Shown one piece after another: positions 8,709 to 25,471 of a stretch of 39,585 nt of DNA (within the stretch, counting starts at the first letter, position 1; each line of letters opens with the position of its first letter). Location: the IMG/VR virus record IMGVR_UViG_3300009071_000004. The stretch is one strand, 5' to 3'. Origin of the DNA: a virus. The position numbers were made by a program, and so were the translations under genes. The notes beneath the pieces were generated by a model. It had not been told where the DNA came from and searched no databases. It saw only the letters and a list, made by a program, of their open reading frames with translations.

Positions 8709-8727
8709 ATGCCGTCCACTATGGGGC

Positions 8728-10495: not shown

Positions 10496-10497
10496 CG

Positions 10498-10725: not shown

Positions 10726-10733
10726 GTCGCCTC

Positions 10734-11693: not shown

Positions 11694-11839
11694 GTGCCTT
11701 TCGCGTAATATCTGTAGCGGCGTGGGCCGAGGATGCGTGCGACCCAGTCTTCGGGTAGCTCGTCGCCTCGTATGTCTTTGCGGTCCTTTAGCTCCAAGTT
11801 CTGTGGTCGTTCTTCTGGTGGTAGCTGGCTGATTCCCAT
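11690..11839 (-). CDS. Hypothetical 49-aa protein. Not in the ORF track.
   Basis: My translation: MGISQLPPEERPQNLELKDRKDIRGDELPEDWVARILGPRRYRYYAKGT. The SD taaggaaacc lies directly after the prim-pol stop. Confidence 0.45.
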   Translation of the reverse strand: MGISQLPPEERPQNLELKDRKDIRGDELPEDWVARILGPRRYRYYAKGT

Positions 11840-11854
11840 GGTTTCCTTAGGTGG

Positions 11855-12778: not shown

Positions 12779-12785
12779 GTCTTCC

Positions 12786-13892: not shown

Positions 13893-13929
13893 GTTCTACC
13901 TCCCAGTAGGCGGGTGTGTTGGTTGGGTC

Positions 13930-13963
13930 GGGCAGGGGCGGCTGTGAAGCTGCACCCCTGCCC
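13930..13963 (-). terminator. 9-bp GC stem-loop after the 161-aa gene, a terminator or RNA-processing candidate.
   Basis: GGGCAGGGG (13930-38) pairs with CCCCTGCCC (13955-63). It sits 11 nt downstream of the stop. The loop contains GCTTCACA on the transcribed strand. There is no U-tract. Confidence 0.4.
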
Positions 13964-13974
13964 ATTTGATGGAC

Positions 13975-14460
13975 TTAGTCTAGCCAGAGGGCTAGGGCTG
14001 AATCCTTGTGCTTCAAGTCGGGGCTGGTGGGCTTGTACTCGCCAGCGGCCTTCTTTGGGCGGTTGTCCCAGAACTCGTCTGGGGCGATGGCGTAGCGGGC
14101 TTTGCCCCACGCCTTGTTAGCTGCCTTCTCTGCTTTGTCTCGGGAGTCTCCCGAGTGCGGCGGCATGGGTGCCACGTCGGACGTGGGCATCGAGATGACC
14201 TGCGCTCCTCCGAAGGCTTCACGGGCAGCGTCTGCGAAGGCGTCGGGTGCCATGGGGGCAGCCTGTGGGGCTGGGACAGACTGGAGCGTAGTAGTTGCTC
14301 CTCCGCTGCCTGCCAGATCCCACACAACCTTCTCGATGTACGCTGCAGCCGCAGCGAGCGGCTGGTCCGTCTTGTCGGCCACGATCATGTCGATCGCTCC
14401 CTTGACGCAGACCTGTGCGACAATCAACTGGTCTTTGGGTGTGTAGTCATTCTTACTCAT
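13975..14460 (-). CDS. Hypothetical protein, 161 aa, in the replication-module position.
   Basis: Start MSKNDYTPKDQ is preceded by cataggagggcacac. It has an Ala/Pro-rich linker and a basic C-terminus. No motif recognised. Confidence 0.6.
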   Translation of the reverse strand: MSKNDYTPKDQLIVAQVCVKGAIDMIVADKTDQPLAAAAAYIEKVVWDLAGSGGATTTLQSVPAPQAAPMAPDAFADAAREAFGGAQVISMPTSDVAPMPPHSGDSRDKAEKAANKAWGKARYAIAPDEFWDNRPKKAAGEYKPTSPDLKHKDSALALWLD

Positions 14461-14598
14461 GTGTGCCCTCCTATGGGCGGTACTGGCAACGAACTCTGCT
14501 TGCCGTTGCTCAGGTCTACAAGGTACAGCCACTGCTGCAGTGACGTACAATCAGTCTTGAATATGACTTTAAAGTCATGTACGGCCACTGTACGGCCA

Positions 14599-15450
14599 TC
14601 ATTGTGTGAAGTGTCTGCCTTTGCAGTCGCCCCACGCTGGACACCATTTGGCGCTGCACAGAGCGTGCTGGTCGTTCTTCGGCCATGCGTAGTCGACGCC
14701 TACGCCCTCGTACAGGGTCACGAACGAGCGTAGTTGCTCTGCGAGCCATGAGGCGTGCCCGATGTTGCGCGTCGTGTGGAACAGTTGAGCGATGGGCTGT
14801 GTGGACTTGGACACGACTGCGAATGTGAAGTCGACCTCGGCCATCGCGCTCGTAGGCGCTTCTTTCCACATCAGCTCCATGGCTGTGTCCTCGCCGTACT
14901 CGTCTACAAGGTCAACGATGGCGGCTGCGACACAGTAGAAGGTCGGCTGCACGTACCAGCGGTCGATCTCCCACCCTTGGTAACGGTCGATCTGTGCTGC
15001 GGTCTTCCAGTCCCAGATGCGGCCGTTGATGTCGCGCGCGTCCCATGCGCCCTTGAGGCGTATGGTGCCGTCGGCTGTGAGGGGAACGTTGAAGACGCGT
15101 TCGATCTCTGCAGGGTCCACTGGAGGGACCGATGGAACGACGCTGGTGTTCATGCGCGACGCCATCCCCACGAGCTTCCCTCGCAGGGTGTCGTCTCCTT
15201 TGATCTGGATCCGTTCGAAGTCTTTGGCTTCCATGCGCGCGTCGAGCCACGCCACAGCGTCCTCTTCGGCTTCGCTGTGGCTCAGCCCGTGCAGGCGCGA
15301 CTCCATGTACTCGTGCAGGGCTGTGCCCAGCACTGTGGCGTCTGTGTCTGGCGAATCCCACTCGGGATCGAACGCGGAACGTCTGCTGCGCTCGGGGCAC
15401 AGCAGAAAGTCTTTGGCCCACGACTGACGGAACGTGTACGTCTTCCTCAT
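14599..15450 (-). CDS. Cas4/RecB-family PD-(D/E)XK exonuclease with an Fe-S Cys cluster.
   Basis: N-terminal Cys (FLLCPERS), a DARD...IWDWKT (D..D/ExK) core, QPTFYCVA (QxxxY), and C-terminal CSAKWCPAWGDC. Confidence 0.8.
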   Translation of the reverse strand: MRKTYTFRQSWAKDFLLCPERSRRSAFDPEWDSPDTDATVLGTALHEYMESRLHGLSHSEAEEDAVAWLDARMEAKDFERIQIKGDDTLRGKLVGMASRMNTSVVPSVPPVDPAEIERVFNVPLTADGTIRLKGAWDARDINGRIWDWKTAAQIDRYQGWEIDRWYVQPTFYCVAAAIVDLVDEYGEDTAMELMWKEAPTSAMAEVDFTFAVVSKSTQPIAQLFHTTRNIGHASWLAEQLRSFVTLYEGVGVDYAWPKNDQHALCSAKWCPAWGDCKGRHFTQ

Positions 15451-15959
15451 GGCCTACGGCCTTTCCCCCTAGCTAGACGGGTGCGTTCTGTGTTGGTAGC
15501 GGCATCTCCGCCGTTGCGATTCAGGAACTGGTAGAACGCCCATTGTGTGCCGTCGAAACCCATCTCGACCATGTGCCTGTACACGTCGGCCTTGGTCAGG
15601 TGAGGGTTCGCGCGCCACACAGCTTCGCCGTACTTGTTGTACATGCGTCTCACAGCCCTGACCCCGTGCGGGCCTCGGGCCTGCTCGGGTGACTCGTTGT
15701 GGACGTTGTATGCGTCCAAGATCTCCAGCCACACAGGGTAGCGATCCTCTTCGACCCAGTCGTAGAACTCGTCCATGATCTCCACGAAGTCATGGACACG
15801 AACCTGCTGCTCCAAGTAGTCGAGTAGCGGCAGCTCCTCAGGCACCCTGTAGACGCCCGTTCGCACAGGCGTAGGAGTTGTGATGATGACATCGTCCAGA
15901 TCCCTGCGCGGGCCTCCTGCGAGGATGTCGGCGATCTCGACGTTGTCCATGTAGCCCAT
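15447..15959 (-). CDS. Hypothetical protein, 170 aa.
   Basis: Start MGYMDNVEI lies 1 nt after the upstream stop. The stop overlaps the exonuclease start (ATGA-type). No motif recognised. Confidence 0.6.
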   Translation of the reverse strand: MGYMDNVEIADILAGGPRRDLDDVIITTPTPVRTGVYRVPEELPLLDYLEQQVRVHDFVEIMDEFYDWVEEDRYPVWLEILDAYNVHNESPEQARGPHGVRAVRRMYNKYGEAVWRANPHLTKADVYRHMVEMGFDGTQWAFYQFLNRNGGDAATNTERTRLARGKGRRP

Positions 15960-15960
15960 G

Positions 15961-16242
15961 CTACCCGTCCATCCCGAGGCGTGCTGGGCGAGTGTTGGGC
16001 CTGTGTGCTGGCCCACCGCTCACCCAGAACGACATCTTGGCGTCTACAACGACGAACATGTCGGGGCAGCCGAGCCGTCGGTCTGCGTGCCATTTGCGTA
16101 CGGCTGCGATGGCTGACGGGAGATCGTCTGTGTGCATCTCTACGTCTGGGGCATGGCCACCGTTGCCGAGATAAATCTCGACGCCGATGCCCGTCTCGTA
16201 TTCTTCTGCGTCTGCAGGGTAGATCATTACTGATGTGCTCAT
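15961..16242 (-). CDS. Hypothetical protein, 93 aa.
   Basis: The ATG is preceded by acacacacaaggccgaggaggccaca (CA-tract plus AGGAGG). Confidence 0.6.
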   Translation of the reverse strand: MSTSVMIYPADAEEYETGIGVEIYLGNGGHAPDVEMHTDDLPSAIAAVRKWHADRRLGCPDMFVVVDAKMSFWVSGGPAHRPNTRPARLGMDG

Positions 16243-16403
16243 TGTGGCCTCCTCGGCCTTGTGTGTGTGTATGCCTTGCCTGTGCCCCGATTCGCAGCCA
16301 CCGTAGGCGTGATGGAATTTCCATCGGTGGTCTGCTCAGACGGGGTGCAGCTCACGCTGCTGTCTGATGTGTGTATGTGTTCTCCTGTGATTGCGGACAT
16401 CAG

Positions 16404-16436
16404 GCAGCCCGCCACCCTGTGGGGGCGGCGGGCTGC
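16404..16436 (-). terminator. 10-bp GC stem-loop, an intrinsic-terminator candidate between transcription units.
   Basis: GCAGCCCGCC (16404-13) pairs with GGCGGGCTGC (16427-36). It sits 8 nt downstream of the stop at 16444 and is followed by a ~160-nt non-coding gap. Confidence 0.55.
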
Positions 16437-16443
16437 TTGTCGC

Positions 16444-16635
16444 CTACAAGTCTCGACTGTGCATGAGCGGCTTGGGAGCGGGCTGTACGGCCACGCTGGT
16501 AACCCACCACTCGTTCCTGTCGTTTGCTTGGAAGCCTTCCAGAATCGTTTCGGCGATGCCTTCCATCGCTTCCAGATACGCGGCCTTGCCCTCGGGCAGG
16601 CCGTCACGCAGGTGGACGTTCAACACGAGCCTCAT
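16444..16635 (-). CDS. Hypothetical protein, 63 aa.
   Basis: Start MRLVLNVHL overlaps the upstream stop (ATGA at 16632-35). Confidence 0.55.
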   Translation of the reverse strand: MRLVLNVHLRDGLPEGKAAYLEAMEGIAETILEGFQANDRNEWWVTSVAVQPAPKPLMHSRDL

Positions 16636-16814
16636 CGGGATCGCTCCAGCGACGCTGCGAAGTCGTCCATCGCTTCGGCTGTGCCGCATGCGGAGCAGAC
16701 CATGGTCTTGTTGTCCTTGCGGGACAACGCTCCTGGGTACAGCCCTGGCGTGTCGTTGTTGGGTATGTAGCCCCCGCATCCTGGGCATATTGGCTTGTTG
16801 GTTGTATCGGTCAT
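16632..16814 (-). CDS. Zinc-ribbon miniprotein, 60 aa.
   Basis: MTDTTNKPICPGCGG...MVCSACGTAEA has two CxxC pairs. Upstream lies ttcacacagacagaaagaaaccgat. Confidence 0.6.
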   Translation of the reverse strand: MTDTTNKPICPGCGGYIPNNDTPGLYPGALSRKDNKTMVCSACGTAEAMDDFAASLERSR

Positions 16815-16849
16815 ATCGGTTTCTTTCTGTCTGTGTGAACGGTTGGTGC

Positions 16850-16876
16850 GGGGCAGGAGCATGACGCTCCTGCCCC
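16850..16876 (-). terminator. 11-bp GC stem-loop after the DUF932 gene, a terminator or processing candidate.
   Basis: GGGGCAGGAGC (16850-60) pairs with GCTCCTGCCCC (16866-76). On the transcribed strand it is followed by ccaaccgTTCACACAgacagaaag and the next start. Confidence 0.45.
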
Positions 16877-16890
16877 ACAGAGGCTGCCTA

Positions 16891-17817
16891 TCAGGCTCGG
16901 ACGAGGATCCGTGCGGCCTTGTTGGTCAGCGGGAAGTTGTCTTTGGCCCAGTTGCCAGCGATGCGAGCCTGACGGCCCTTGTCGTTGCCTTGTACGTGTA
17001 GCTCGTACTCGTTCACCGTCTGCAGGAAGTGCCATGCAGTCTGCTCGCCTCCGATGGTCGGCCCATCGAAGATGCGGCGCATGTCTGCACGTCGCTCCAT
17101 CCAGTTGGCCTTGACACGGTCTGTGGCGTCATCCGCAGGCTTCGGGAACAACGCAGGCAGCAGCTCCTCGCCGAAGGTGACACGGCTGTACGCCTTGTCC
17201 ATCAGCCCTGCAGCCCAGGCATCGAACTCGTCAAACGCTGTGTACGTCTCGACGAGTGCAGCCTTCGCCTCGGCCAGACGTTCCTGTGCAGATGAACGGT
17301 GCTGGATGCTGTGGAACAGCTCGCCGCCAGAGACAGCGATCTTGAGCGTGTTCTCACAGACGACTCGCATGTTGACACCCTCGATGCGGAACGAGCCGCT
17401 GCCGTGCCATGTGGAGATGAGCAGCCAACGGTGGATGGCCTCGTCGGTGCCGTCGAAGCGAGGCGACTCGCCCAAGTCGACGAGCATCCAGACGAACTTG
17501 CCGCCCCACATCTGGCCGCAGGTCTGGACGCTCAGGTCCAGCTCGTCGGCGATGTCGGCCAGCTCCGTGTTCTGCAGGATCTCGTACTTGGGTGAGACGA
17601 CATCCAGCACAGCTCCGTCCGTCGTCTTCAAGGCGACGTGAGTTTCCAACGGCGTGTAGCTGCCTCCCAGGTACAGGGATGACTTGTGGACGCCCCAGGC
17701 AATGCCGCCTAGGTGCAGAGCTTCACGGCCTGTGCAGAAACGGTCGATGACCGTTCCGATGCCATGCCACGGCGTGGTGCCGCTGTTGCTCATCATGGTT
17801 TCGGGGATTGCTCCCAT
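16891..17817 (-). CDS. DUF932 (phage/plasmid-like protein, TIGR03299-type).
   Basis: TTPWHGIGT..., SPKYEILQN, GGKFVWMLV, LLISTWHGSGSF and RVVCENTL match the DUF932 signature blocks as I recall them. Start MGAIPE is preceded by AGGAGGtcacata. Confidence 0.8.
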   Translation of the reverse strand: MGAIPETMMSNSGTTPWHGIGTVIDRFCTGREALHLGGIAWGVHKSSLYLGGSYTPLETHVALKTTDGAVLDVVSPKYEILQNTELADIADELDLSVQTCGQMWGGKFVWMLVDLGESPRFDGTDEAIHRWLLISTWHGSGSFRIEGVNMRVVCENTLKIAVSGGELFHSIQHRSSAQERLAEAKAALVETYTAFDEFDAWAAGLMDKAYSRVTFGEELLPALFPKPADDATDRVKANWMERRADMRRIFDGPTIGGEQTAWHFLQTVNEYELHVQGNDKGRQARIAGNWAKDNFPLTNKAARILVRA

Positions 17818-17838
17818 TATGTGACCTCCTGTGGTCAT

Positions 17839-17863
17839 GTGTGTGTGAAGTCGGAAGACTTCG
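17839..17863 (-). repeat. Early-arm stem-loop plus CTTCACACA element, copy (GAAGTC-GGAA-GACTTC).
   Basis: Stem 17847-52 / 17857-62. The transcribed strand reads cGAAGTCttccGACTTCACACACACAtgaccacAGGAGG..ATG. Confidence 0.7.
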
Positions 17864-17907
17864 CCCATGCCACACAGTACGCAGACTGTGTGACATCGAC
17901 GCTGCCG

Positions 17908-18063
17908 TCAGGTGCCGAGAGAACGTTCCGCCTCGTAGCGTCGCAGCTCCCAACGGATCTGGCCGTTGACAGAACGCTCGTTGGCTTCTGCACGTTCTTT
18001 GATGCGGATGTGGTGGTCCGTTGGTAGGGCCACCAGAACCTTGTGCTGAGGTTGCTTGGTCAT
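17908..18063 (-). CDS. Ribbon-helix-helix (Arc/CopG-like) DNA-binding protein, 51 aa.
   Basis: MTKQPQHKVLVALPTDHHIRIKERAEANERSVNGQIRWELRRYE fits beta-strand, helix, helix with the typical K/R-x-hydrophobic alternation at the N-terminus. Confidence 0.6.
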   Translation of the reverse strand: MTKQPQHKVLVALPTDHHIRIKERAEANERSVNGQIRWELRRYEAERSLGT

Positions 18064-18082
18064 AGGTCTGTATGTGCTTCCT

Positions 18083-18105
18083 GTGTGTGAAGTCGAATGA
18101 CTTCG
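18083..18105 (-). repeat. Early-arm stem-loop plus CTTCACACA element, copy (GAAGTC-GAAT-GACTTC).
   Basis: Stem 18089-94 / 18099-104. The transcribed strand reads cGAAGTCattcGACTTCACACACAGGAAG. Confidence 0.7.
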
Positions 18106-18149
18106 CCCACCCCGCAGAGCGTGTGTGCCCTGCAGGGTGGACGCTGCCA

Positions 18150-18443
18150 TCAGGCCAGATCGGACGGGGCGGTGTACATGGCGACGTTCCCCTTGAGTAC
18201 GAGGAAGCCGCTGTCGATCATCACCTTGACTGCCTCCCTGACGGCATGGCGGAACGCTGCGCTCTGCAGGGTCGCAGCCTGTGCCTCGGCGATCAGGTTG
18301 CGGATGTCATGAGCACTCAGCTCTGACGCATCCTCGTCTCGGGTGTCCAGCACGTCCTCGATCATCGACTCGATCGAGCTACGGGCCTCTTCGACCAGCT
18401 CGTCAGCGTCAATGTCGACGTCATTGCAAATTTCGATGTTCAT
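18150..18443 (-). CDS. Strongly acidic 97-aa protein, function unknown.
   Basis: MNIEICNDVDIDADELVEEARSSIESMIEDVLDTRDEDASELS... The SD is ggaggtacacata. Confidence 0.6.
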   Translation of the reverse strand: MNIEICNDVDIDADELVEEARSSIESMIEDVLDTRDEDASELSAHDIRNLIAEAQAATLQSAAFRHAVREAVKVMIDSGFLVLKGNVAMYTAPSDLA

Positions 18444-18464
18444 TATGTGTACCTCCAAGGTACG

Positions 18465-18488
18465 TATGTGTGAAGTCGGAAGACTTCG
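18465..18488 (-). repeat. Early-arm stem-loop plus CTTCACACA element, copy (GAAGTC-GGAA-GACTTC).
   Basis: Stem 18472-77 / 18482-87. It shares the 17-mer gaagtcggaagacttcg with the copy at 17847. Confidence 0.7.
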
Positions 18489-18528
18489 TGCAAGGCACAG
18501 AGTCGCTGTGGCCCTGTGCCCTGCACGC

Positions 18529-18822
18529 TCACTTCCAGCTATTCATCGGGATCTCGACGAAGTCGCCGACCCCATCGGATGTCCAGTTCCATGTCAGCCC
18601 GAAGACGCTGCACTGCACGTCCTGAACGTCCCGAGTGAAGGCAACGAGTACGTGACCGTCTTTGCGACGGAACCCGTTGTGCTTCTCGGCGTTGTCGAGA
18701 GCCTCGTCGTAGGTGTTGCCGTTACCCCAGAAGCCGTAGCCATAGACGACGAAGCGCCAACGCTGCTTCTCGCTTGTCTCGGTGTCTGTGATGGTGGATG
18801 TGTCTGTGTTCGTGTCGGGCAT
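18529..18822 (-). CDS. Hypothetical protein, 97 aa.
   Basis: The ATG is preceded by cataggaggtcggc. It is the first gene after the promoter at 18874-18903. Confidence 0.6.
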   Translation of the reverse strand: MPDTNTDTSTITDTETSEKQRWRFVVYGYGFWGNGNTYDEALDNAEKHNGFRRKDGHVLVAFTRDVQDVQCSVFGLTWNWTSDGVGDFVEIPMNSWK

Positions 18823-18873
18823 GCCGACCTCCTATGTCTGCCGAACGACTTGCTCGGCGTTGATTGCCCCATC

Positions 18874-18903
18874 AATCTACCACGGATGGTGGCAGCTCGT
18901 CAA
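18874..18903 (-). promoter_or_regulatory. Sigma70/SigA-like leftward promoter: TTGACG-N18-(TGg)TAGATT.
   Basis: The minus strand reads cGATTTGACGagctgccaccatccgTGgTAGATT. It lies in an intergenic region and shares the cGATTTGAC and ccgtrG blocks with the promoters at 21884 and 22503. Confidence 0.6.
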
Positions 18904-18923
18904 ATCGGGGATTCCCGTAGGGC

Positions 18924-19055
18924 CTAGAACAGTCGAGGCTCGTTGCCGTCCCTCTCCTCCGCAATGATGCGGGTGGCGAGCGGTCCGCAGATGCCACGGG
19001 CACGCTCCACACGTTCTTGGTGCTTGTCTGCCTGTGATCGGTCTGAATGGTTCAT
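18924..19055 (-). CDS. Hypothetical 43-aa protein.
   Basis: Start MNHSDRSQADKHQ is preceded by gggaggtgaagtc. There is an ATGA overlap with the upstream gene. Confidence 0.4.
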   Translation of the reverse strand: MNHSDRSQADKHQERVERARGICGPLATRIIAEERDGNEPRLF

Positions 19056-19318
19056 GACTTCACCTCCCAGTCGGCGTAGTAGTTGGGGACTTCGGGGTAC
19101 TCCGTGGGTAGGAGCGGAGCCTCTGTGATCATGTCTGCGTCTGTGAAGTTGTGGCCCTGCACGAAGCCGCCATGCATGGCAGCTTCCAGCACATGGCCGA
19201 AGGCTTCGCCGTCGGCTTCTCGTTTCTTCATGCGTTCGTGACACAGGCTCAGCACCCAGCTCCCTGTGATCAGGATCATGACCATGATCCCCCAGAACGC
19301 TCCGATGTCTGTTCTCAT
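19052..19318 (-). CDS. Membrane protein, 88 aa, with one N-terminal TM helix.
   Basis: MRTDIGAFWGIMVMILITGSWVLSLC contains the TM segment, followed by an acidic tail. Confidence 0.6.
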   Translation of the reverse strand: MRTDIGAFWGIMVMILITGSWVLSLCHERMKKREADGEAFGHVLEAAMHGGFVQGHNFTDADMITEAPLLPTEYPEVPNYYADWEVKS

Positions 19319-19376
19319 ATCTGCTCTCTTTCTGTGGCTGCTACAGCAGCCAACTTTGTAGGTTCTTTCTTAATGA

Positions 19377-19398
19377 GCGGCTCCCTGAGGGGAGCCGC
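19377..19398 (-). terminator. 9-bp GC stem with a tetraloop, a terminator or small-RNA 3' end candidate.
   Basis: GCGGCTCCC-TGAG-GGGAGCCGC. It is intergenic, ~30 nt downstream of a TATAAT promoter, and has no U-tract. Confidence 0.4.
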
Positions 19399-19426
19399 GA
19401 ATGCAAGGCTGGAGAACTGCGTTCTC

Positions 19427-19456
19427 ATTATACGCAGCCCTCACAGCCCTGTACAA
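19427..19456 (-). promoter_or_regulatory. Sigma70-like leftward promoter: TTGTAC-N18-TATAAT.
   Basis: The minus strand reads TTGTACagggctgtgagggctgcgTATAAT, with a perfect -10. It lies in the 160-nt gap upstream of the 88-aa membrane protein gene. Confidence 0.55.
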
Positions 19457-19476
19457 ACGCCCCTGTGTAGTAGCCC

Positions 19477-19593
19477 CTATGTGCAGGATGTCCAGCAGGC
19501 ATCAGGGCCGAGAACGTAGGGGATCCGAGTCGCTGCAAGGATTGCTAAAGCAAGCAGTGCGGCAACGAAGGCAGCATCGTGGATGCGGCTCAC
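19477..19593 (-). CDS. Possible 38-aa hydrophobic peptide. Not in the ORF track.
   Basis: The GTG start overlaps the upstream stop (GTGA). My translation is V/MSRIHDAAFVAALLALAILAATRIPYVLGPDACWTSCT. Confidence 0.3.
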   Translation of the reverse strand: MSRIHDAAFVAALLALAILAATRIPYVLGPDACWTSCT

Positions 19594-19814
19594 GCTTCAC
19601 CGTCCTGAGCGGAGGCGATGACGATGGATGCGCTGACGAAGGTGCCGTGGGCTTCGAGGACTTTGTCGATCTCTAGCAGGACGGCCTTGGCTCTGGCAGC
19701 GACGTTCGGGAAACCCTCGTCTGTGGCGACCCGCATGTCGTGCCGCAGAGCGGCTTGCAGATCGACCAAGGGGATGTGGATTCGGGACTCAAGGATGGTC
19801 TTCGGGGTGGTCAT
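19590..19814 (-). CDS. Hypothetical protein, 74 aa.
   Basis: Start MTTPKTILES is preceded by acacAGGAAGacacacacac. Confidence 0.55.
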   Translation of the reverse strand: MTTPKTILESRIHIPLVDLQAALRHDMRVATDEGFPNVAARAKAVLLEIDKVLEAHGTFVSASIVIASAQDGEA

Positions 19815-19832
19815 GTGTGTGTGTCTTCCTGT

Positions 19833-19856
19833 GTAGGTGAAGCCTGAGTGCTTCGT
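19833..19856 (-). repeat. Early-arm stem-loop element, copy (GAAGC-CTGAGT-GCTTC).
   Basis: Stem 19839-43 / 19850-54. It shares ctgagtgcttcgtga with the copy at 21978. Confidence 0.65.
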
Positions 19857-19895
19857 GATCCCCACAGACAGATGCCTGCAGGGATCCCGCTGTAC

Positions 19896-20513
19896 TCAGA
19901 GCGACCAGCGGTCTACGACTACGTCGTACGCTTCACAGCCGTGGCAGACGACTTCGGTGCCGTCGGCTTCCGTCTCGCCGTACAAGCAGCCGAACTTGTG
20001 CATGCTGTGTGTGAGCCGACGGACCATGGCCGTTGACGCTTCGCCCATCTCTGTGGCAGCGATGAAGGCGTTTGCACCTTCGACGATGTCGACGGGGTGT
20101 GGCTGATCGTCTTGCACCAGCCGCACAGTCTGTGAGTCGAGCCTGTCGCCGTGGCTGACGGCGTACTCACTCAGCATCTGAGCTGCCAAGCCGTCGACGG
20201 TGCCATTCAGGCTGTAGCCTTCGGCAACGAAGCTGTACTGCATGGCGTGCCGCTGGCTGTGAAGCTTGGCTTGGAACTTCACGACGGCTTCGCCCCACGA
20301 CAAGTCGTAGGAGCCGCTTCCCCAAGAGTCGGCGTCGATTCGTGCATCTGTGAAGAACACGAAGCGACGTGCAGGGTTGTGAGTGCCTCGGCACATGTTC
20401 GGGGCATCGACGATGCCATGCCAAACTTGGACGGTGCCTTGCCCTGCAGCTTGCAGGAACGCGGCGACCACACGTTGGCCGTTGAGGGTGGATGGGACAG
20501 TTCCGATCGACAT
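19896..20513 (-). CDS. Hypothetical protein, 205 aa.
   Basis: Start MSIGTVPSTL is preceded by aaaggatcgact. No motif recognised. Confidence 0.6.
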   Translation of the reverse strand: MSIGTVPSTLNGQRVVAAFLQAAGQGTVQVWHGIVDAPNMCRGTHNPARRFVFFTDARIDADSWGSGSYDLSWGEAVVKFQAKLHSQRHAMQYSFVAEGYSLNGTVDGLAAQMLSEYAVSHGDRLDSQTVRLVQDDQPHPVDIVEGANAFIAATEMGEASTAMVRRLTHSMHKFGCLYGETEADGTEVVCHGCEAYDVVVDRWSL

Positions 20514-20528
20514 AGTCGATCCTTTCAT

Positions 20529-20570
20529 GTATGTGAAGCGGAGTGCTTCGGTGTGTGATGCAGAGCATCC
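20529..20570 (-). repeat. Tandem pair of early-arm stem-loops (GAAGC-GGAGT-GCTTC and GATGC-AGA-GCATC).
   Basis: Stems 20535-39 / 20545-49 and 20557-61 / 20565-69. The transcribed strand reads GATGCtctGCATCACACACcGAAGCactccGCTTCACATACATGAAAGG. Confidence 0.65.
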
Positions 20571-20608
20571 CTCATCCCGCCCCCCGAAGGGGACGGAGTG
20601 AGAGTCGT

Positions 20609-20851
20609 CTACAGCTCGTCCCAGCAGGGGCCACACAGGAAGTGCGGGAAGGGACGGGGGACGTTGTCCATGATCACTTCACGGTTCTGGGCCGTGTATT
20701 CCCCTACGGGGAAGTGAGACTGGACTGAGCCGCCTCGCTTGTATGCCTTGAAGGCAGCGGTGGGCACTCCGCAGCCTTCTTCGTGGCCGCACTGGGTGCA
20801 TTTGGCTGTGAGGTGGGTGATGGATGCCGAAGGCATGTTGAGGTATGTCAT
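20609..20851 (-). CDS. Cys-rich (zinc-finger-like) 80-aa protein.
   Basis: Start MTYLNMPSASI. It carries CTQCGHEEGC ... CGPC. Confidence 0.55.
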   Translation of the reverse strand: MTYLNMPSASITHLTAKCTQCGHEEGCGVPTAAFKAYKRGGSVQSHFPVGEYTAQNREVIMDNVPRPFPHFLCGPCWDEL

Positions 20852-20870
20852 GGTGCTTCTTTCTGTATAT

Positions 20871-20890
20871 GTGAGTGATGCAGAGCATCG
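20871..20890 (-). repeat. Early-arm stem-loop element, copy (GATGC-AGA-GCATC).
   Basis: Stem 20877-81 / 20885-89. The 15-mer gtgatgcagagcatc is identical to the one at 20555-20569. Confidence 0.65.
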
Positions 20891-20941
20891 GAGACGGCAC
20901 CACCACACAGGGCGATGCCGTCGCCGTCGCCGTCGACTACG

Positions 20942-21805
20942 TCAGGCAACTAGGGAGACTGCCGTCTCCTGTATGAAGCCGTGATGGTTGACGCTACGGT
21001 CACGGGGCAGCTTGTACCGAAGACCGACGATGTTGCCAGGCTCGTCGAGGAACCGAAGGTCGTGCTTGTCACCGTCGATGACAGGCATGCCGTGCCACTC
21101 GGCGATCATCTCGCCCTTCGGGACGATGTCGAACGGGACAACTACGTTGTGGCCAGCTTCCAGCAGGGTACGGATCTGTGATATCGGCGTGTTCTCCGTG
21201 GCGGAAAAGACTCGGTACTGGTTGGGGTGCCGTAGGGACCAGCTCAGCTTCACATCCTCGTGCTTCGTGTAATCCGAGAAGATCACATCGTGATGCTTCC
21301 GAAGGATCCAGCCAGGGATCTCGACATCGGACGTTCCGTTGACACGAACGACCAGCGTCTTGCCCTTGGCTGCCACACGGGCCTTGTTTCGTGTGATCTC
21401 GGCGTCGGCGAGCCGCCAGAAGGCTGAGTAGTCGCCGTCTGTGAGGTGTGTCATGGAGAACAGCACCGTTCTGGCTAGCTTCGCTATTTCGGCCATGGCC
21501 AGACGGCCCGAAGTGTGAAGGCAAGCTGCCCTGCAACCTCTGGTTGAAGAGCGGCAAACGTTCCGAAACTTGACCGACATCGTAGGCCCCGTCCACAGCA
21601 GCTCATAGAGCCGCTTGGCTAGGGTGTGAGGCAACATGTAACAAACGATCTGCTCGAAATCGTCGGTCACATCTCGGTTGTGGTTCAGCTTGGTGCTGGC
21701 ATGCTGAGGTGTGAAGAGGTACGGCGCTTTGCCGCCACCAAGAGTGGTACTGATGAAGACGAACAAAGTTCGGATCATCGATAGTTGGAATGTTGCAGCT
21801 TTCAT
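20942..21805 (-). CDS. GP88-family-like protein (mycobacteriophage gp88 domain), function unknown.
   Basis: NVCRSSTRGCRAACLHTSGRLAM resembles the Cys-rich CP..T.GC...CLY..GRG block of GP88-family proteins as I recall them. The SD is cacAGGAGGctcacat. Confidence 0.45.
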   Translation of the reverse strand: MKAATFQLSMIRTLFVFISTTLGGGKAPYLFTPQHASTKLNHNRDVTDDFEQIVCYMLPHTLAKRLYELLWTGPTMSVKFRNVCRSSTRGCRAACLHTSGRLAMAEIAKLARTVLFSMTHLTDGDYSAFWRLADAEITRNKARVAAKGKTLVVRVNGTSDVEIPGWILRKHHDVIFSDYTKHEDVKLSWSLRHPNQYRVFSATENTPISQIRTLLEAGHNVVVPFDIVPKGEMIAEWHGMPVIDGDKHDLRFLDEPGNIVGLRYKLPRDRSVNHHGFIQETAVSLVA

Positions 21806-21883
21806 ATGTGAGCCTCCTGTGAAGCCATTGTGTGTATGTCGAGATGCCTTGGTCGGCGTCTCGGGGTTTCGAATTTCTGCCGT

Positions 21884-21913
21884 ACCTTACACCACGGCAA
21901 GCCAACCAGTCAA
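21884..21913 (-). promoter_or_regulatory. Sigma70/SigA-like leftward promoter: TTGACT-N18-(TGt)TAAGGT.
   Basis: The minus strand reads cGATTTGACTggttggcttgccgtggTGtTAAGGT. It is intergenic, ~80 nt upstream of the GP88-like gene. Confidence 0.6.
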
Positions 21914-21974
21914 ATCGGCTGGCCCACCGTAGGTAAGAGTCGCTATGTACGGGTGCCTAGTTGGCGGGCAGCCC

Positions 21975-21994
21975 GTTGAAGCTGAGTGCTTCGT
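21975..21994 (-). repeat. Early-arm stem-loop element, copy (GAAGC-TGAGT-GCTTC).
   Basis: Stem 21978-82 / 21988-92, in the gap downstream of the 61-aa gene. Confidence 0.65.
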
Positions 21995-22036
21995 GAAACC
22001 CTCACACGATTGCCGTGTGAAGGCTTCCCGCTGCAA

Positions 22037-22222
22037 TCACTTGCGACGCTTGTCTTTCGACGGTCGAAACACTGCACGATCTCCATCGGAGATCCATTTG
22101 CCGTCACGCTTGTTATCGTCACAGCAGCCCCTGTTGGGGCGGCAGTGGGTGCATTGGCCGTCGTTGTTTCGGTCCCTGTTACGAAGGAACTTCGTAGTAG
22201 CTGAATCTCTGCCACCTGTCAT
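22037..22222 (-). CDS. Small basic Cys-containing protein, 61 aa.
   Basis: The ATG is preceded by ccacacacatAGGAGGtcacc. It carries CTHCRPNRGCC and a K/R-rich C-terminus. I prefer it over the overlapping 21943..22215 ORF, which lacks an SD. Confidence 0.55.
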   Translation of the reverse strand: MTGGRDSATTKFLRNRDRNNDGQCTHCRPNRGCCDDNKRDGKWISDGDRAVFRPSKDKRRK

Positions 22223-22269
22223 GGTGACCTCCTATGTGTGTGGTTGGTTCCTGTGATACCGCGACGGCC

Positions 22270-22449
22270 CTAGAAGGGATTCTCGCAGACGACTTCGTCG
22301 TAGAAGCAATCTCCGTCCCAGATGGCGTCCTGTGAAGACTTCATGCGGGGGAAATCGTAGTCCCAGTCGAAGAACACTGCTTCGGCGTCTACGACGGTCT
22401 TCGGCATCACAGCCGTACTGACGGGGGAAACTGTGGAGCTAGTAGCCAT
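22270..22449 (-). CDS. Hypothetical protein, 59 aa.
   Basis: Start MATSSTVSPV is preceded by ccacacataacAGGAGGtggcca. Confidence 0.55.
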   Translation of the reverse strand: MATSSTVSPVSTAVMPKTVVDAEAVFFDWDYDFPRMKSSQDAIWDGDCFYDEVVCENPF

Positions 22450-22502
22450 TGGCCACCTCCTGTTATGTGTGGTTGGTCCGAGTTGAATCGGCGACGGCAA
22501 TC

Positions 22503-22532
22503 ACCATACTACGGAAACTGCCGAGCCGTCAA
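22503..22532 (-). promoter_or_regulatory. Sigma70/SigA-like leftward promoter: TTGACG-N18-TATGGT.
   Basis: The minus strand reads cGATTTGACGgctcggcagtttccgtagTATGGT, in the 183-nt gap upstream of the 59-aa gene. Confidence 0.6.
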
Positions 22533-22565
22533 ATCGTTACCGTATGCATAATGCGGCACGGTAAC

Positions 22566-22584
22566 CATGAAGCAAGCTGCTTCG
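22566..22584 (-). repeat. Early-arm stem-loop element, copy (GAAGCA-AGC-TGCTTC).
   Basis: Stem 22569-74 / 22578-83. The 19-mer catgaagcaagctgcttcg is identical to the one at 23465-23483. Confidence 0.7.
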
Positions 22585-22632
22585 GGATCCCGCAGAGCCA
22601 CTCAGGCCCTGCAGGATCACGCTGCCACTCGC

Positions 22633-22866
22633 TCAGTCCCTGCTCATGAAGCCTTTACAGCCGCAATCGGAGTCTTCGGCACAATCACGGTGCTCTGCAA
22701 GCCAGTCAGCTTCCCAGTCGGGACTGGATGCTTCACAGGGGCACGCATCAATCTTCGATGCCGCATGTTCGGCGTTACTGGCACAGTCGCCACAGCCACA
22801 GCAGATCTCCGTGTAAATGTCGAGATCGAGCTGAAAGCACTTTTCGCATTCAATTTCGTCGGGCAA
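22633..22866 (-). CDS. Acidic Cys-rich miniprotein, 77 aa, 12 Cys.
   Basis: The TTG start is preceded by cacatAGGAGAagacc. It carries CEKC...CCGCGDC...CPC...C...CGC. Confidence 0.55.
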   Translation of the reverse strand: MPDEIECEKCFQLDLDIYTEICCGCGDCASNAEHAASKIDACPCEASSPDWEADWLAEHRDCAEDSDCGCKGFMSRD

Positions 22867-22908
22867 GGTCTTCTCCTATGTGTTCCTTCACACCAGAATG
22901 GCGTGAAG

Positions 22909-22929
22909 GGATGAAGCAAATCGCTTCGT
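22909..22929 (-). repeat. Early-arm stem-loop element, copy (GAAGC-AAATC-GCTTC).
   Basis: Stem 22913-17 / 22923-27. Confidence 0.6.
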
Positions 22930-22935
22930 GAACCT

Positions 22936-22963
22936 CCTTCCCGTGAATTGCTTCACAGGAAGG
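22936..22963 (-). terminator. Composite 11-bp stem-loop after the 142-aa gene, a terminator or processing candidate.
   Basis: CCTTCC-c-GTGAA-ttgc-TTCAC-a-GGAAGG, 29 nt downstream of the stop at 22992. Confidence 0.4.
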
Positions 22964-22991
22964 AAGTTCCCGCTGCGATCAGCGAAGCTGA

Positions 22992-23420
22992 TTACAGGTT
23001 ACGACGGTCCCAAATCATCGACTTGACACCTTCACAGAGCCGAACTTCACGGTACGAATCTCCGTCTTCCAAATCGGCCTCGTAGTGGCCATCACAGTAC
23101 AGCTCGAACATGCAGTCCTGAATGCGTTCGCCGCCGTAGTTCCACAGCCACACGATCGCCTCGTACTGCCATTGTCCCGCAATTTCTTCGAAGAGCGACA
23201 TGTGCAGCTTCGCTGCAAGCCGAGCCATTTCGTCTCTATCACAGCCCTCCTGAACGACAAAGTCGTCGGGTGTGATGTCTTCACAAACCAGCTCGGCGAC
23301 TACGTCGAGCCGTCGAGCCAAATCGGCCAGCCCAATCACACGGCGCCGTGACCATGGGCCAAGAGCCTCCATGCCCTTCGGGATATCCTGATAAATTTCC
23401 GTACCTTCGGTGGTGCTCAT
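22992..23420 (-). CDS. Acidic hypothetical protein, 142 aa.
   Basis: Start MSTTEGTEIYQD is preceded by acacataaggaaaatttg. It is D/E-rich. No motif recognised. Confidence 0.6.
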   Translation of the reverse strand: MSTTEGTEIYQDIPKGMEALGPWSRRRVIGLADLARRLDVVAELVCEDITPDDFVVQEGCDRDEMARLAAKLHMSLFEEIAGQWQYEAIVWLWNYGGERIQDCMFELYCDGHYEADLEDGDSYREVRLCEGVKSMIWDRRNL

Positions 23421-23443
23421 CAAATTTTCCTTATGTGTTCGTT

Positions 23444-23483
23444 CCTGTGAAGGGTTCACAGGAGCATGAAGCAAGCTGCTTCG
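23444..23483 (-). repeat. Pair of early-arm stem-loops (CCTGTGAA-GGG-TTCACAGG and GAAGCA-AGC-TGCTTC).
   Basis: Stems 23444-51 / 23455-62 and 23468-73 / 23477-82, directly upstream of the 142-aa gene. Confidence 0.7.
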
Positions 23484-23542
23484 TGATCGCCAACCATGCG
23501 TCATTGCTTCACACGGTTGGCGATCCCGCTGCATCTAGCTGC

Positions 23543-24298
23543 TCAGCCAGCGAGGCAATCCACGAAGCTCTGAGCGTTGTTGATCTTCGAAACCACTACG
23601 TGGTCCAGCCGACCGACAGCAGGGCTTTCCTGCAGCTCTGTGAGGGCAGCCCAGGTCTCGATGAACAAATCCTCTTCGAGGACCAAGTGGCCTCTTCGAG
23701 GCCGTTCGATGAAGCTAATCAGCGCTTCGTCGACTCCGATAGCTCCCAGCTCGTCACGGAGCTTCGCTCCGAAGAGCACCTTCAACTTCGTTGACTCAGG
23801 AAGCTTCGCTTCTTTCACAGGAGCCGAAGGCTCCCCGCCAGGAAGCTTCGCTTCTTTCTTCACAGAAGCCTTCGGCTTCGGCTTGGTGGAAGCCTTCGGC
23901 CTCGGCTTCGGCCTCGGAGCAGCTTTCTTCGAAGCCTTCGGCTTCACTGGAGCCTTCGGCTCTGTCGAAGCCTTCGGCTTCAGCCTGCCGTCCGTCTTCG
24001 ACGGGTTCCAACCATTGTCTCGGCAAAGCTGCTTCGCAGCTTCCAAATCACCTTCGGTGATAAGAGCCGAAACCCTTGCCCTAACGGCTTTGCCGTCACG
24101 CTTCGGAGCTTCGCTCCGCTTAGTTGAAGCCTTCGGCTTGGTCGAAGCCTTCGGCTTAGTTGAAGCCTTCGGCTTCCGTACTGGCTTCGTAGAAGCCACT
24201 TCCGTAGTTGAAGCCTTCGGCTTCGTCTGAGCTTCGCTCAGCGTAGTTGTGATGAACAAGTCGCCGAAGCGAATCTCGATGGTCTGTGGACGAGCCAT
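23543..24298 (-). CDS. Lysine-rich repeat protein ([K]PKAST repeats), candidate histone-H1/HupB-tail-like nucleic-acid binder. It is the first gene of the leftward arm.
   Basis: KPKASTKPKASTKPKAST plus further KPKAS(T/K) units are spread over aa 25-150. A helical insert VRARVSALITEGDLEAAKQLCRDNGWNP follows, and the ~90-aa C-terminal domain is non-repetitive. Confidence 0.7.
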   Translation of the reverse strand: MARPQTIEIRFGDLFITTTLSEAQTKPKASTTEVASTKPVRKPKASTKPKASTKPKASTKRSEAPKRDGKAVRARVSALITEGDLEAAKQLCRDNGWNPSKTDGRLKPKASTEPKAPVKPKASKKAAPRPKPRPKASTKPKPKASVKKEAKLPGGEPSAPVKEAKLPESTKLKVLFGAKLRDELGAIGVDEALISFIERPRRGHLVLEEDLFIETWAALTELQESPAVGRLDHVVVSKINNAQSFVDCLAG

Positions 24299-24860
24299 GG
24301 TGGCCCTGCTTTCCTATGTGAGGGCTTCGCCCCGTGGGGTAAAGCCCGCCGAACCGACTGGCTCGACTTCTCCATAGGACCATAGATCGGCCCCAAAAGT
24401 CAAGCAGAAATCCCCCAATGGCCCCCTACGCCCCCCATTGGTTTCTGCCTCACTCGCGCTGCCCGCTCGCACGCTCGATCGGGGGCGGGTACGTGCATGC
24501 ATGTGATCGCATGCTGAGCGAAGCTCAGTGCGAGGGCGGGTGCGGGTATAGGGGGGGGTGGGCGCGCGCGTCAAGATGTAATAATCCTTTGTTCTGCGGA
24601 TTGTTTCCCCCCCCAGGATGCTTGTCCGCTTGTTTGTCCGCTGTTCGTGTGTTAACGGTCGTTAACATGAACGCTGTCCATGTGATATTAGCTTCTCGCT
24701 TTGCAGCGGGGCCGCCCGAGCGGACCCGCACCAGCGCAGGCTCGCTTGGGGGACGTATGGCTCTCTTTTTCTACGGTTCTGGACTGTAGTAGCCGCTCTG
24801 GCATTCGTGGCCCCTGAGGGGGGCCACTCATTAAAGCATTGTTTCTGGCGTTCTAACATT

Positions 24861-24934
24861 GGGTGTGAAGGTTGGCTTCGCTGCTCCTCCTACTGGGGGT
24901 GCGGGATACCTGGGTTCGATCCCCAGCACATCCA
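24861..24934 (+). other. tRNA-like element with a canonical T-arm and acceptor stem. The D and anticodon arms are not canonical.
   Basis: CTGGG-TTCGATC-CCCAG forms the T-arm (24910-26). The 7-bp acceptor GGGTGTG (24861-67) pairs with CACATCC (24927-33) with one G-U, followed by discriminator A and then CCC. I could not fold positions 8-49 into standard D and anticodon arms. Confidence 0.3.
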
Positions 24935-24991
24935 CCCATCCTTCTAGCGGAGGGGCGTCTACGACCCCCGACGCTGTACGCTGTCCACGGT

Positions 24992-25471
24992 ATGGACATG
25001 GAAGCTGGAGAGACGCCATCTGATTACCACTGGTCTTACAATTCGACAACGGGGGAGGAGGATCCTCCACCGATTGTGCTGACGTATTTAGAGAACTTGA
25101 CTTCTCTGGAGCATGATCGTTTGTCTGATAAGGCGTGGGCTGCCGAGTTTGGGATTGCGGATCGGACGTTGCGGCGTTGGAAGAAGGATGAGCGGTTTCG
25201 GAAGCTGTGGACGAAGATGGCTGACAACTCGGTGTTGGGGCCTGACGCTATTTCGCCGATTTATCATGCGGCGTTGAAGATTGCTGCTGATCCTGATCAT
25301 CCGAAGTGGGATGCTGCGTCGAAAATGATTTTGTCGTTGGCTGACAAGGTGCGGCCTCCGACTCTTCAGGTGAATGTGACTGCTGAGGATCGGTTTACTA
25401 ACATGTCTGACGATCAGCTTCAGGCGTACCTGGCTCAGGGTAAGGACGTGTTGGAGATCGGCCCGTCGTGA
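24992..25471 (+). CDS. terS: Terminase small subunit (N-terminal HTH).
   Basis: SDKAWAAEFGIADRTLRRWKKDERF is an HTH. The stop overlaps the TerL start (GTGA). The start is uncertain (M at 24992 or 24998), and the upstream part of the tracked ORF overlaps the tRNA-like element. Confidence 0.55.
   Translation: MDMEAGETPSDYHWSYNSTTGEEDPPPIVLTYLENLTSLEHDRLSDKAWAAEFGIADRTLRRWKKDERFRKLWTKMADNSVLGPDAISPIYHAALKIAADPDHPKWDAASKMILSLADKVRPPTLQVNVTAEDRFTNMSDDQLQAYLAQGKDVLEIGPS

Follow-up and report, generated by a model that had tools for sequence, protein, structure and literature searches.

Paired hairpins between the early genes of an uncultured podophage: a repeated, sense-strand-selected element as a candidate punctuation signal of polycistronic transcripts

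The subject of this work is the IMG/VR virus record IMGVR_UViG_3300009071_000004, a stretch of 39,585 nucleotides (referred to as the window, i.e., the whole stretch of DNA that was analysed), and in particular a family of two-hairpin repeats found between its early genes. The window is an apparently complete phage genome of ~39.6 kb with two arms. The plus-strand arm (~24.9-39.5 kb, carrying on at 0.2-8.7 kb) carries the virion (late) genes, whose products comprise a large terminase, a P22/SU10-type portal, a major capsid protein, tail fibre-like proteins and a 2180-aa protein without a family match. The minus-strand arm extends from ~24.3 kb down to 8.9 kb; small open reading frames (ORFs) of unknown function come first in it, and they are followed by genes for a DUF932 protein, a PD-(D/E)XK nuclease, a DnaB-like helicase, an AEP-type primase, a WhiB protein, RusA and a weakly matching sigma-70 region-4 protein.

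The elements are 50-60 bases long, are present in ~10 copies between the early genes and consist of a long variable hairpin (HP1) abutting a short conserved one (HP2). The order of their parts on the sense (minus) strand is the upstream stop codon, a 5' motif, HP1, HP2, usually an A/C-rich stretch, a Shine-Dalgarno sequence (SD) and the start codon. In class I elements the 5' motif placed after the stop codon is (G/A)CAG|CG, in class II elements it is CTGTAG(G/A)CGAC, which holds the TAG stop itself, and a related motif (GYAG(N)CG) is kept in both classes. HP1 is a near-perfect, G+C-rich helix of 13-18 bp, the sequence of which varies from copy to copy; it begins 1-22 nt past the upstream stop codon (1-7 nt in seven copies) and is separated from HP2 by a spacer of only 0-2 nt in all ten copies. 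HP2 is a 5-7-bp hairpin of the form 5'-GAWGY...RCWUC-3' (GAAGY...RCUUC in class I and GAUGY...RCAUC in class II). Its loop measures 3-7 nt, apart from one outlier of 12 nt, and 3-nt loops were found in only six of the 36 copies compared. If HP2 stacks on HP1, the two together give ~20-24 pairs. The ends of the elements read CGTCCA/TGGGCG or CGGGATC/GATCACG. The copies and the related or similarly placed hairpins are as follows:

23468-23527, minus strand: element A, class I, between gene 1 (23543-24298) and gene 2 (start 23420)
22913-22969, minus strand: element B, class I, before a TTG start at 22866
22570-22621, minus strand: element C, class I, at an operon end, then a further hairpin and the promoter-like site 22503-22532
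21978-22029, minus strand: element D, class I, after the 61-aa ORF 22037-22222, then the promoter-like site 21884-21913
20877-20925, minus strand: class II element, HP1 GGCGACGGCATCGCC/GGTGGTGCCGTCTCC, HP2 GATGC-TCT-GCATC, then ACTCACA and the start at 20851
20534-20603, minus strand: class II element, CTGTAGACGAC including the TAG stop of ORF 20609-20851, then HP1 and HP2 GATGC-TCT-GCATC
19839-19888, minus strand: element F, class I, before the start at 19814
18473-18527, minus strand: element G, class I, HP2 GAAGTC-TTCC-GACTTC, then CACACATA, before the start at 18443
18090-18143, minus strand: element H, class I, before a 51-aa Arc/ribbon-helix-helix (RHH)-like ORF (start 18063)
17848-17901, minus strand: element I, class I, before the DUF932 gene (start 17817)
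16845-16885, minus strand: degenerate relative, GCAGCC, an 11-bp hairpin GGGGCAGGAGC/GCTCCTGCCCC, then CACCAACCGTTCACACA; no HP2 in the window
16400-16448, minus strand: degenerate class II copy, CTTGTAGGCGAC with the TAG stop and a hairpin CAGCCCGCCGCC/GGTGGCGGGCTG; HP2 eroded
13930-13965, minus strand: unrelated strong hairpin GGGCAGGGGTG/GCCCCTGCCC, then a CA-rich leader, before the DnaB-like gene
24318-24345, minus strand: gene 1 leader hairpin GGGCTT..AAGCCC, then TCACATAGGA

Element A (5' motif GCAGCGG, HP1 of 16-18 bp, HP2 GAAGCA-GCT-TGCTTC) has a predicted folding energy of -34.9 kcal/mol on the sense strand vs -28.9 kcal/mol on the antisense strand, and for element B (HP1 of 18 bp, HP2 GAAGC-GATTT-GCTTC) the sense value is -36.8 kcal/mol. 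The element at 20534-20603 is supplemented by an extra HP2 of the class I type (GAAGC-ACTCC-GCTTC) and CACATACA ahead of the start at 20513. In eight of the ten elements HP2 lies 20-47 nt from the start codon, and the remaining two (22570-22621 and 21978-22029) have no SD downstream, being followed by another hairpin and a sigma-70-like promoter. No U-tract follows the hairpins: HP1 leads into HP2, and HP2 into CACACA or other non-U sequence. Searches of the whole window against Rfam gave 0 matches at the gathering score, and at E<=5 the region 16400-24900 returned chance-level miRNA and sRNA matches only.

An earlier note on this DNA, made from the letters alone, had described a short stem-loop, directly followed by the box CTTCACA(C/T)A (here the CA box), upstream of nearly every early gene start. 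The stem-loop is present, but it proved to be only the 3' half (HP2) of a bipartite unit, with the 13-18-bp HP1 directly upstream, and its frequency was overstated, as there are ten elements in 17848-23527, eight of them ahead of a start codon. The four subfamilies of copies sharing exact words that were listed there are real (plus-strand positions 17847/18472 with a variant at 18089; 19844/21982, the latter given as 21983, 1 nt off; 22566/23465; and 20555/20875), and the strong hairpins pointed out at ~16850-16885, 13930-13965 and 24318-24345 are likewise visible in the sequence.

With a strict descriptor (HP1 score at least 11, HP1 loop 4-20, spacer 0-3, HP2 stem 5-7, HP2 loop 3-7), 10 minus-strand copies were found, all within 17848-23527, together with three unrelated plus-strand matches; the late arm contained no match. 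In dinucleotide-preserving shuffles (n=20) the mean was 0.55 matches for both strands together. A looser two-hairpin descriptor (HP1 of at least 9 bp) was useless, since it gave 98 and 65 matches on the two strands.

The word TGTGAAG, i.e., the plus-strand counterpart of the core of the CA box, occurs 31 times vs 6.6 +/- 2.7 in shuffles, and none of 100 shuffles reached 31. The excess claimed for it is therefore real; it is not mostly intergenic, as had been supposed, about half of the plus-strand copies at 13.9-24.9 kb lying in coding DNA. The exact box CTTCACA(C/T)A was found five times (0.65 expected), in four cases within elements. Its position directly after the stem-loop holds for these four, but the other elements are without the exact box, and CA-rich leaders (CCAACCACACAYAGGAGG-like) are also present ahead of early or middle genes lacking a two-hairpin element (starts 22448, 22222, 21805, 16242 and 13892); they are absent from the late plus-strand genes. 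The CA box is a leader feature of the minus arm (early and some middle genes), separable from the hairpin repeat.

Two side observations concern the same signals. The string TGTAGRCGAC (<=1 mismatch) occurs 16 times vs 4 expected, with 8 occurrences on the minus strand. The minus-strand occurrences, among them those at 13407, 13647, 14899, 16039, 16439 and 20604, are not confined to class II elements, several of them lying within coding DNA; the excess may reflect codon usage or a further signal. Moreover, on the minus strand, the SDs of the DUF932 gene (17822-17838) and of the gene starting at 18443 (18448-18463) lie within small conserved hairpins, GACC-nnnGGA-GGTC and GTACC-TTGGA-GGTAC, respectively, in which GGAGG would be half-sequestered, and which are kept at the same sites in the related phages L001, L003, L004 and L021.

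The IMG/VR collection contained six relatives of the phage, two of them with DUF932 proteins 98% and 94% identical to that of the window and four with 67-69% identity, and more distant relatives (L019-L025) were obtained from protein-collection look-ups. Both element classes are present on the sense strand in L001-L006, L021 and L022. The site directly upstream of the DUF932 gene holds an element even in L024 (DUF932 50% identical) and L025 (43%; a genome of 65% G+C). At the site syntenic to the degenerate copy 16845-16885, L005 (6351-6405) has both HP1 and HP2, and at the site of the copy 16400-16448 an intact HP2 (GATGTC-N4-6-GRCATC) was found in L004, L005, L006, L019, L021 and L022. The number of copies differs among the relatives. 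No clear family member was seen in MW202803.1, a more distant GenBank relative (capsid protein ~30% identical). A scan of 185,579 bacterial genomes with the narrow pattern GCGAAGYC-N4-GRCTTCACACA returned 13 matches, each of them the only one in its genome; these matches, having neither a two-hairpin context nor similarity to the window, were taken as chance.

The alignment of copies from the window and its relatives allowed the pairing itself to be analysed. For the ten basal pairs of HP1 in 34 aligned copies, 95.8% of cells were paired vs 61.0% after partner shuffling, double-change cells numbered 103 vs 32.5, and the covariation score was 0.842 vs 0.215, a value that none of 500 shuffles reached. 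As the copies are mutually related, this shuffle control is generous; when the partners were slid by 1-3 columns, the score fell to 0.10-0.19. The slide control and the variety of pair types point to real selection for pairing in HP1. In HP2, pairs 1, 2 and 4 (G-C, A-U and G-C) are invariant in 35 of 36 copies, and covariation is seen at pair 3 (A-U in some copies, U-A in others) and at pair 5 (C-G, U-A or U-G). In the MAFFT alignment the 3' half of HP2 could not be consistently aligned across both classes.

A strand preference accompanies the pairing. Among 763 HP1 pairs of 49 family members, collected by a search scoring G.U and A.C alike, there were 98 G.U vs 6 A.C, and the sense RNAs of the ten copies fold at -29 to -41 kcal/mol, beating the antisense by 2.4-10 kcal/mol in every case. 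Because G.U far exceeds A.C in HP1 and the sense folds are more stable, the fold is taken to be selected on the transcribed-sense strand, and the selected molecule is, most simply, RNA. Two other candidates were rejected: HP2 as a protein-binding DNA palindrome, as the half-site spacing ranges from 3 to 7 nt (12 in the outlier) and the half-sites change in compensatory fashion, and a promoter inside the element, as the distance between the 5' motif and HP2 shifts with HP1 and no -10-like hexamer is conserved. Nor do the aligned elements share a conserved hexamer pair.

The comparison with relatives also revealed that junctions of gene gain and loss fall inside the elements. At the DUF932 locus the window has the order geneX-H-RHH ORF-I-DUF932, while L001 has geneX-H-DUF932 and L002 geneX-I-DUF932. 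The cassette concerned is the following:

17908-18063, minus strand: 51-aa Arc/ribbon-helix-helix-like ORF cassette, absent from the two closest relatives (L001 ~5436-5489; L002 ~5069-5122)

Each of these two relatives, lacking the cassette, retains a different flanking element (H vs I). In L001, moreover, gene order is rearranged: an element whose HP2 holds the crossover connects the 61-aa ORF (window 22037-22222) with the gene whose start in the window is at 20513. The class II element 20877-20925 has counterparts of 86-93% identity in L001, L003 and L006, and in L001 it precedes a different downstream gene; element F forms in L001 and L002 an island of ~90% identity, the immediate flanks of which have no detectable DNA similarity. 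Differences in the HP1 core were also seen between sites with otherwise orthologous flanking genes. With ~50 nt of near-identical sequence repeated in one orientation, the copies would act as linkers for homologous recombination, at which small early genes would be gained, lost and reshuffled as an evolutionary side effect.

For the transcription of the early region, the following promoter-like sites were distinguished:

~24374-24403, minus strand: promoter-like site
23451-23424, minus strand: promoter-like site in the leader after element A (the other sites lie outside elements)
22503-22532, minus strand: TTGACG-N18-TATGGT, sigma-70-like
21884-21913, minus strand: TTGACT-N18-TAAGGT, read from the sequence; the leader has a small hairpin and then ACATACACACA
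19427-19455, minus strand: TGTACA-N17-TATAAT
18874-18903, minus strand: TTGACG-N18-TAGATT, with TG ahead of the second hexamer

The sites 22503-22532, 21884-21913 and 18874-18903 have the string cgaTTTGAC in common. In agreement with the earlier note, no terminator consisting of a hairpin and a T-run was called on the minus strand in 8700-25200. Since host-type promoters are few, small genes without a promoter are many and classical minus-strand terminators are missing, the early RNAs are presumably polycistronic. The elements lie between the cistrons within operons under sigma-70-like promoters, and two copies close operons just before promoters. A small hairpin followed by the CA box and SD is present also in promoter-proximal leaders, i.e., those of gene 1, after 21884-21913 and after 18874-18903, and in the case of gene 1 this module stands without any same-strand gene upstream.

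Taking together the anatomy, the above-chance copy number, the sense-strand selection, the covariation, the conservation in relatives and the junctions, we tentatively favour, with a little less than even confidence, the view that the elements serve in cis as RNA punctuation between the cistrons of early transcripts, acting by 3'-end formation or by RNase III-type processing and providing a 5' hairpin leader. According to this proposal, the host RNA polymerase would produce polycistronic early transcripts from a handful of sigma-70/sigma-A-like promoters, and HP1 would set the 3' end of the upstream cistron, either as the target of a double-strand-specific endonuclease (of the RNase III type, cf. 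the early sites of T7 and SP82) or as a barrier where transcripts end or to which they are trimmed back, in which case it would form or protect the 3' end. HP2, stacked on HP1, would together with the unstructured CA-rich spacer become the 5' hairpin-plus-leader of the downstream cistron; it is the presence of a small hairpin, CA box and SD in promoter-proximal leaders, that of gene 1 included, that suggests such a 5' end. Each early gene would thereby receive its own 3' hairpin and its own 5' hairpin-plus-leader, largely independently of its neighbours. Cleavage or 3'-end formation and the enzyme responsible, as well as any stabilisation of the message or aid to translation by the hairpins, are steps that we infer. 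Among the three roles proposed in the earlier note, processing by an enzyme of the RNase III/E type seems to fit best, considering the sense-strand selection, the intercistronic position and the ~20-24 stacked pairs.

Several points weigh against this proposal. The RNase III sites of T7 typically have an internal loop, which HP1 lacks, and alone (13-18 bp) HP1 falls short of the ~20 bp generally given for this enzyme. The conserved HP2 stem and 5' motif hint at a sequence-specific reader, which an RNase III model does not need. Hairpins of single-stranded DNA on the same strand, if tolerant of G.T pairs, would yield an identical strand asymmetry. The RNase repertoire of the host is assumed, the host itself being deduced from the WhiB and GP88 genes only, and the punctuation role is a prediction from sequence.

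Alternative explanations have to be considered against the same evidence. The main rival, though an unlikely one in our opinion, is that the elements are intrinsic terminators or attenuators without a U-tract, of the tandem 'V-shaped' type, which would meter read-through and so impose a gradient of polarity or postpone the middle genes, perhaps with relief by a phage factor. Their geometry, with the second hairpin immediately after the first, fits the rare V-shaped class of WebGeSTer (PMC3013805), they stand just past stop codons (two of them at operon ends ahead of promoters), the minus strand has no canonical terminator (8700-25200), and the phage looks actinobacterial (WhiB Pfam E 6e-15, GP88). 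However, eight copies have a promoterless gene within 20-47 nt, and the DUF932 gene sits behind three elements in series, with the replication genes further on; because of these downstream genes, the elements cannot terminate efficiently. Furthermore, in vitro work showed that the RNA polymerase of mycobacteria needs a U-tract (PMC3993855). In the seven copies in which HP1 begins only 1-7 nt past the stop, it would lie partly under a terminating ribosome, and the conserved sequence of the HP2 stem would be left unexplained. That sequence is an argument for another, rather improbable, possibility, namely that HP2 and the GYAG(N)CG motif form an RNA operator read by a sequence-specific protein of the phage, either an RNA-binding protein or an endonuclease, which would regulate or process all early messages together. 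A binding site for a phage protein had been suggested before, and it would be compatible with the three invariant HP2 pairs, conserved in copies from several phages while the length and sequence of the loop vary, with the retention of the 5' motif in both classes, and with the limitation of the elements to one temporal class of genes; yet shared ancestry of the copies could equally give invariant pairs, of the early ORFs compared with Pfam or PHROGs, none yielded an RNA-binding or nuclease domain, and no candidate protein was linked to the elements by co-occurrence. A bolder version, to which we likewise give a small chance, is a dedicated phage 'cassette punctuation', in which an unrecognised early protein would read the invariant GAWGY/RCWUC hairpin beside the long helix and cut or remodel every early message in a Cas6/Csy4-like manner, while the sites would double as portable joints of an integron-like cassette array without an integrase, moving single ORFan genes between phages.

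The junctions inside the elements could also mean that these are selfish or neutral repeats (PeSL-like or MITE-like), kept for recombination and cassette exchange and having no role in expression, and the HP1 cores that differ between sites with orthologous flanking genes, as well as the copy number varying among relatives, agree with this. We consider it doubtful all the same, since recombination needs identity and not pairing, yet compensatory changes keep the pairing and G.U is found on one strand only; in addition, an element persists upstream of DUF932 at 43% protein identity, and both the orientation of the elements and their placement with respect to stop and start codons are strict. 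Least probable of all, in our view, is a role as single-stranded DNA hairpins, whether as N4-type promoters for a virion RNA polymerase, which the earlier note had also put forward, or as REP/attC-like sites for an HUH protein or a tyrosine recombinase. HP2 is a perfect palindrome that could form on either strand, class II copies open with GTAG and then a palindrome, as REPs do, and each ORF is trailed by a structured element, with mobile cassettes, as in the case of integron attC. Nonetheless, most HP2 loops are not of 3 nt, the HP1 wobble favours the non-template strand, host-type promoters are already there, the Pfam and PHROGs matches included no integrase, RAYT or HUH gene, and the one narrow pattern scan of bacterial genomes gave single, chance-level matches only. 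Nor was a polymerase signature found in the 2180-aa ORF or its homologues:

2166-8708, plus strand: 2180-aa ORF in the virion-gene arm

This ORF shows 34-88% identity across 15 full-length homologues, with the C-terminal 400 residues highly conserved, and it has no Pfam, PHROG or PDB sequence match; none of the 15 closest homologues has a precomputed Pfam domain, a profile of the ORF and 13 homologues matched no RNA polymerase chain in PDB, and neither DxDxD nor a T7-type motif B string is present. The protein is probably an internal or ejection protein.

Family searches of the minus arm indicated further genes that bear on the host:

20942-21805, minus strand: GP88-family protein
11267-11539, minus strand: WhiB-family protein (Pfam E 6e-15)
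9490-10023, minus strand: weak sigma-70 region-4 protein

WhiB is treated as an actinophage marker (PMC10202952), and from the WhiB and GP88 genes only, the host is probably an actinobacterium; the WhiB, GP88 and sigma-like genes together suggest an actinobacterial host, probably of freshwater, the relatives coming from lake and spring metagenomes. The phage would accordingly belong to a clade of uncultured podophages, probably with actinobacterial hosts. GenBank phages gave no megablast match to the region, and the capsid protein is at most ~31% identical to its nearest GenBank relatives. The search for relatives of the GP88-like gene in IMG/VR found none, because the gene sits in a variable cassette.

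Some other features of the window should be mentioned. The product of gene 1 (23543-24298, minus strand) is a basic protein of 251 aa in which (K/R)PKAS(T) repeats are numerous, and its codons (AAGCCGAAGGCTTC) make perfect GAAGCC-GAA-GGCTTC palindromes similar to HP2; a gene of the same kind is present in L004. A tRNA scan of the window found none. At ~24885-24945 (plus strand) there is a string, ...GGGTTCGATCCCCAGCACATCCACCC, resembling a tRNA T-arm and 3' acceptor half, at which ARAGORN calls no tRNA; it could be a tRNA remnant or an attP-like core, and family searches returned no integrase. In the divergent gap between the arms (~24540-24680), homopolymer runs of G and of C occur together with repeated copies of GCGGACAA(G/A)C words; an origin, a site for packaging or a region of late promoters may lie there. 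At ~14570-14598 (minus strand), where the nuclease gene and the ORF next to it are separated by the only AT-rich gap in the middle region, a perfect palindrome, ATGACTTTAAAGTCAT, adjoins the direct repeat TGTACGGCCAC x2, and this may be an operator or a middle promoter.

If the elements indeed define transcript ends, they would show the early-gene expression strategy of an uncultured, probably actinobacterial podophage clade that is without an experimental model at present. Irrespective of this, the family is a compact natural example of covariation, with dozens of paralogous and orthologous copies in which a freely varying helix is combined with a fixed small hairpin, and the element is a possible insulator or processing part for high-GC hosts.

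Among the known systems with which the elements can be compared, N4 hairpin promoters have a 5-7-bp stem and a 3-nt loop and act on the template strand, and differ from HP2, whose loops are mostly longer, and from HP1, whose wobble is on the non-template strand. REP/BIME sequences are transcribed imperfect palindromes with a GTAG tetranucleotide, located within operons, which stabilise upstream mRNA and affect translation near the stop codon. The elements resemble them as intergenic, transcribed imperfect palindromes in operons that follow a GTAG-like tetranucleotide, but REPs are chromosomal, present in hundreds of copies and associated with RAYT, while here GTAG occurs in class II only (class I has GCAG) and no RAYT/HUH family was found by Pfam or PHROGs searches of the ORFs tested. 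Integron attC sites are recognized by the IntI tyrosine recombinase and have R''/R' core sites (RYYYAAC / GTTRRRY) at the palindrome ends; the ends of the elements are not GTTRRRY, and the family searches returned no integrase.

The early RNA of T7 contains RNase III sites between the early cistrons. Conserved RNase III sites were described also for the early mRNA of SP82 (Panganiban and Whiteley 1983, as cited in PMC4838370). With both, the elements share conserved intercistronic hairpins, polycistronic early transcripts made by the host polymerase (here a predicted feature), several similar copies and the lack of a U-tract. A T7 site is, however, a single irregular hairpin with an internal loop, and the elements, known here from sequence, have a near-perfect 13-18-bp helix and a separate small hairpin; similarity in sequence to these sites was neither found nor sought. 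Relative to the size of an RNase III site (~two helical turns of double-stranded RNA), HP1 alone is short, and the expected length is approached only if HP2 stacks on it.

Lacking an immediate U-rich tract, the elements are not canonical intrinsic terminators. Their stems are longer and their folds more stable than those of typical terminators, which have 7-14 bp and -15 to -25 kcal/mol (PMC3013805). The V-/I-shaped terminators of WebGeSTer are similar in having two hairpins back to back within ~50 nt of the stop codon and no U-rich tail (PMC3013805), and the V-shaped structures are reportedly favoured in high-GC lineages (PMC3013805), although the function of this non-canonical class is disputed (PMC3993855). 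The elements qualify for the V-shaped class by shape only (spacer 0-2 nt, stop-HP1 gap 1-22 nt); this class is defined by shape, whereas the elements are found inside operons ahead of promoterless genes and have longer stems and a conserved HP2.

The promoter-early stem-loops (PeSLs) of T4-type phages are repeats whose copies recombine, which explains indels and gene replacement (PMC2839356, PMC4122927). In both systems, short repeated cassettes occur in ORFan-rich early regions, span the distance from the upstream stop codon to the downstream SD or start, contain a stem-loop with G-T pairs and serve as recombination points between close relatives. The core of a PeSL is, however, a strong sigma-70 promoter with an AT-rich upstream region, while the elements are without promoter-like hexamers, the promoters being separate and few, and have two abutting hairpins, one with a conserved stem. 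The coincidence of junctions and elements extends the PeSL idea, i.e., regulatory repeats doubling as linkers for the shuffling of ORFans, to a very different phage group and kind of motif. The closest analogues found in the literature are PeSLs and the RNase III sites of phages: intercistronic hairpin punctuation and regulatory repeats acting as recombination linkers are already known in kind, and what is new here is the bipartite anatomy, the phage group and a repeat of this sort without a promoter.

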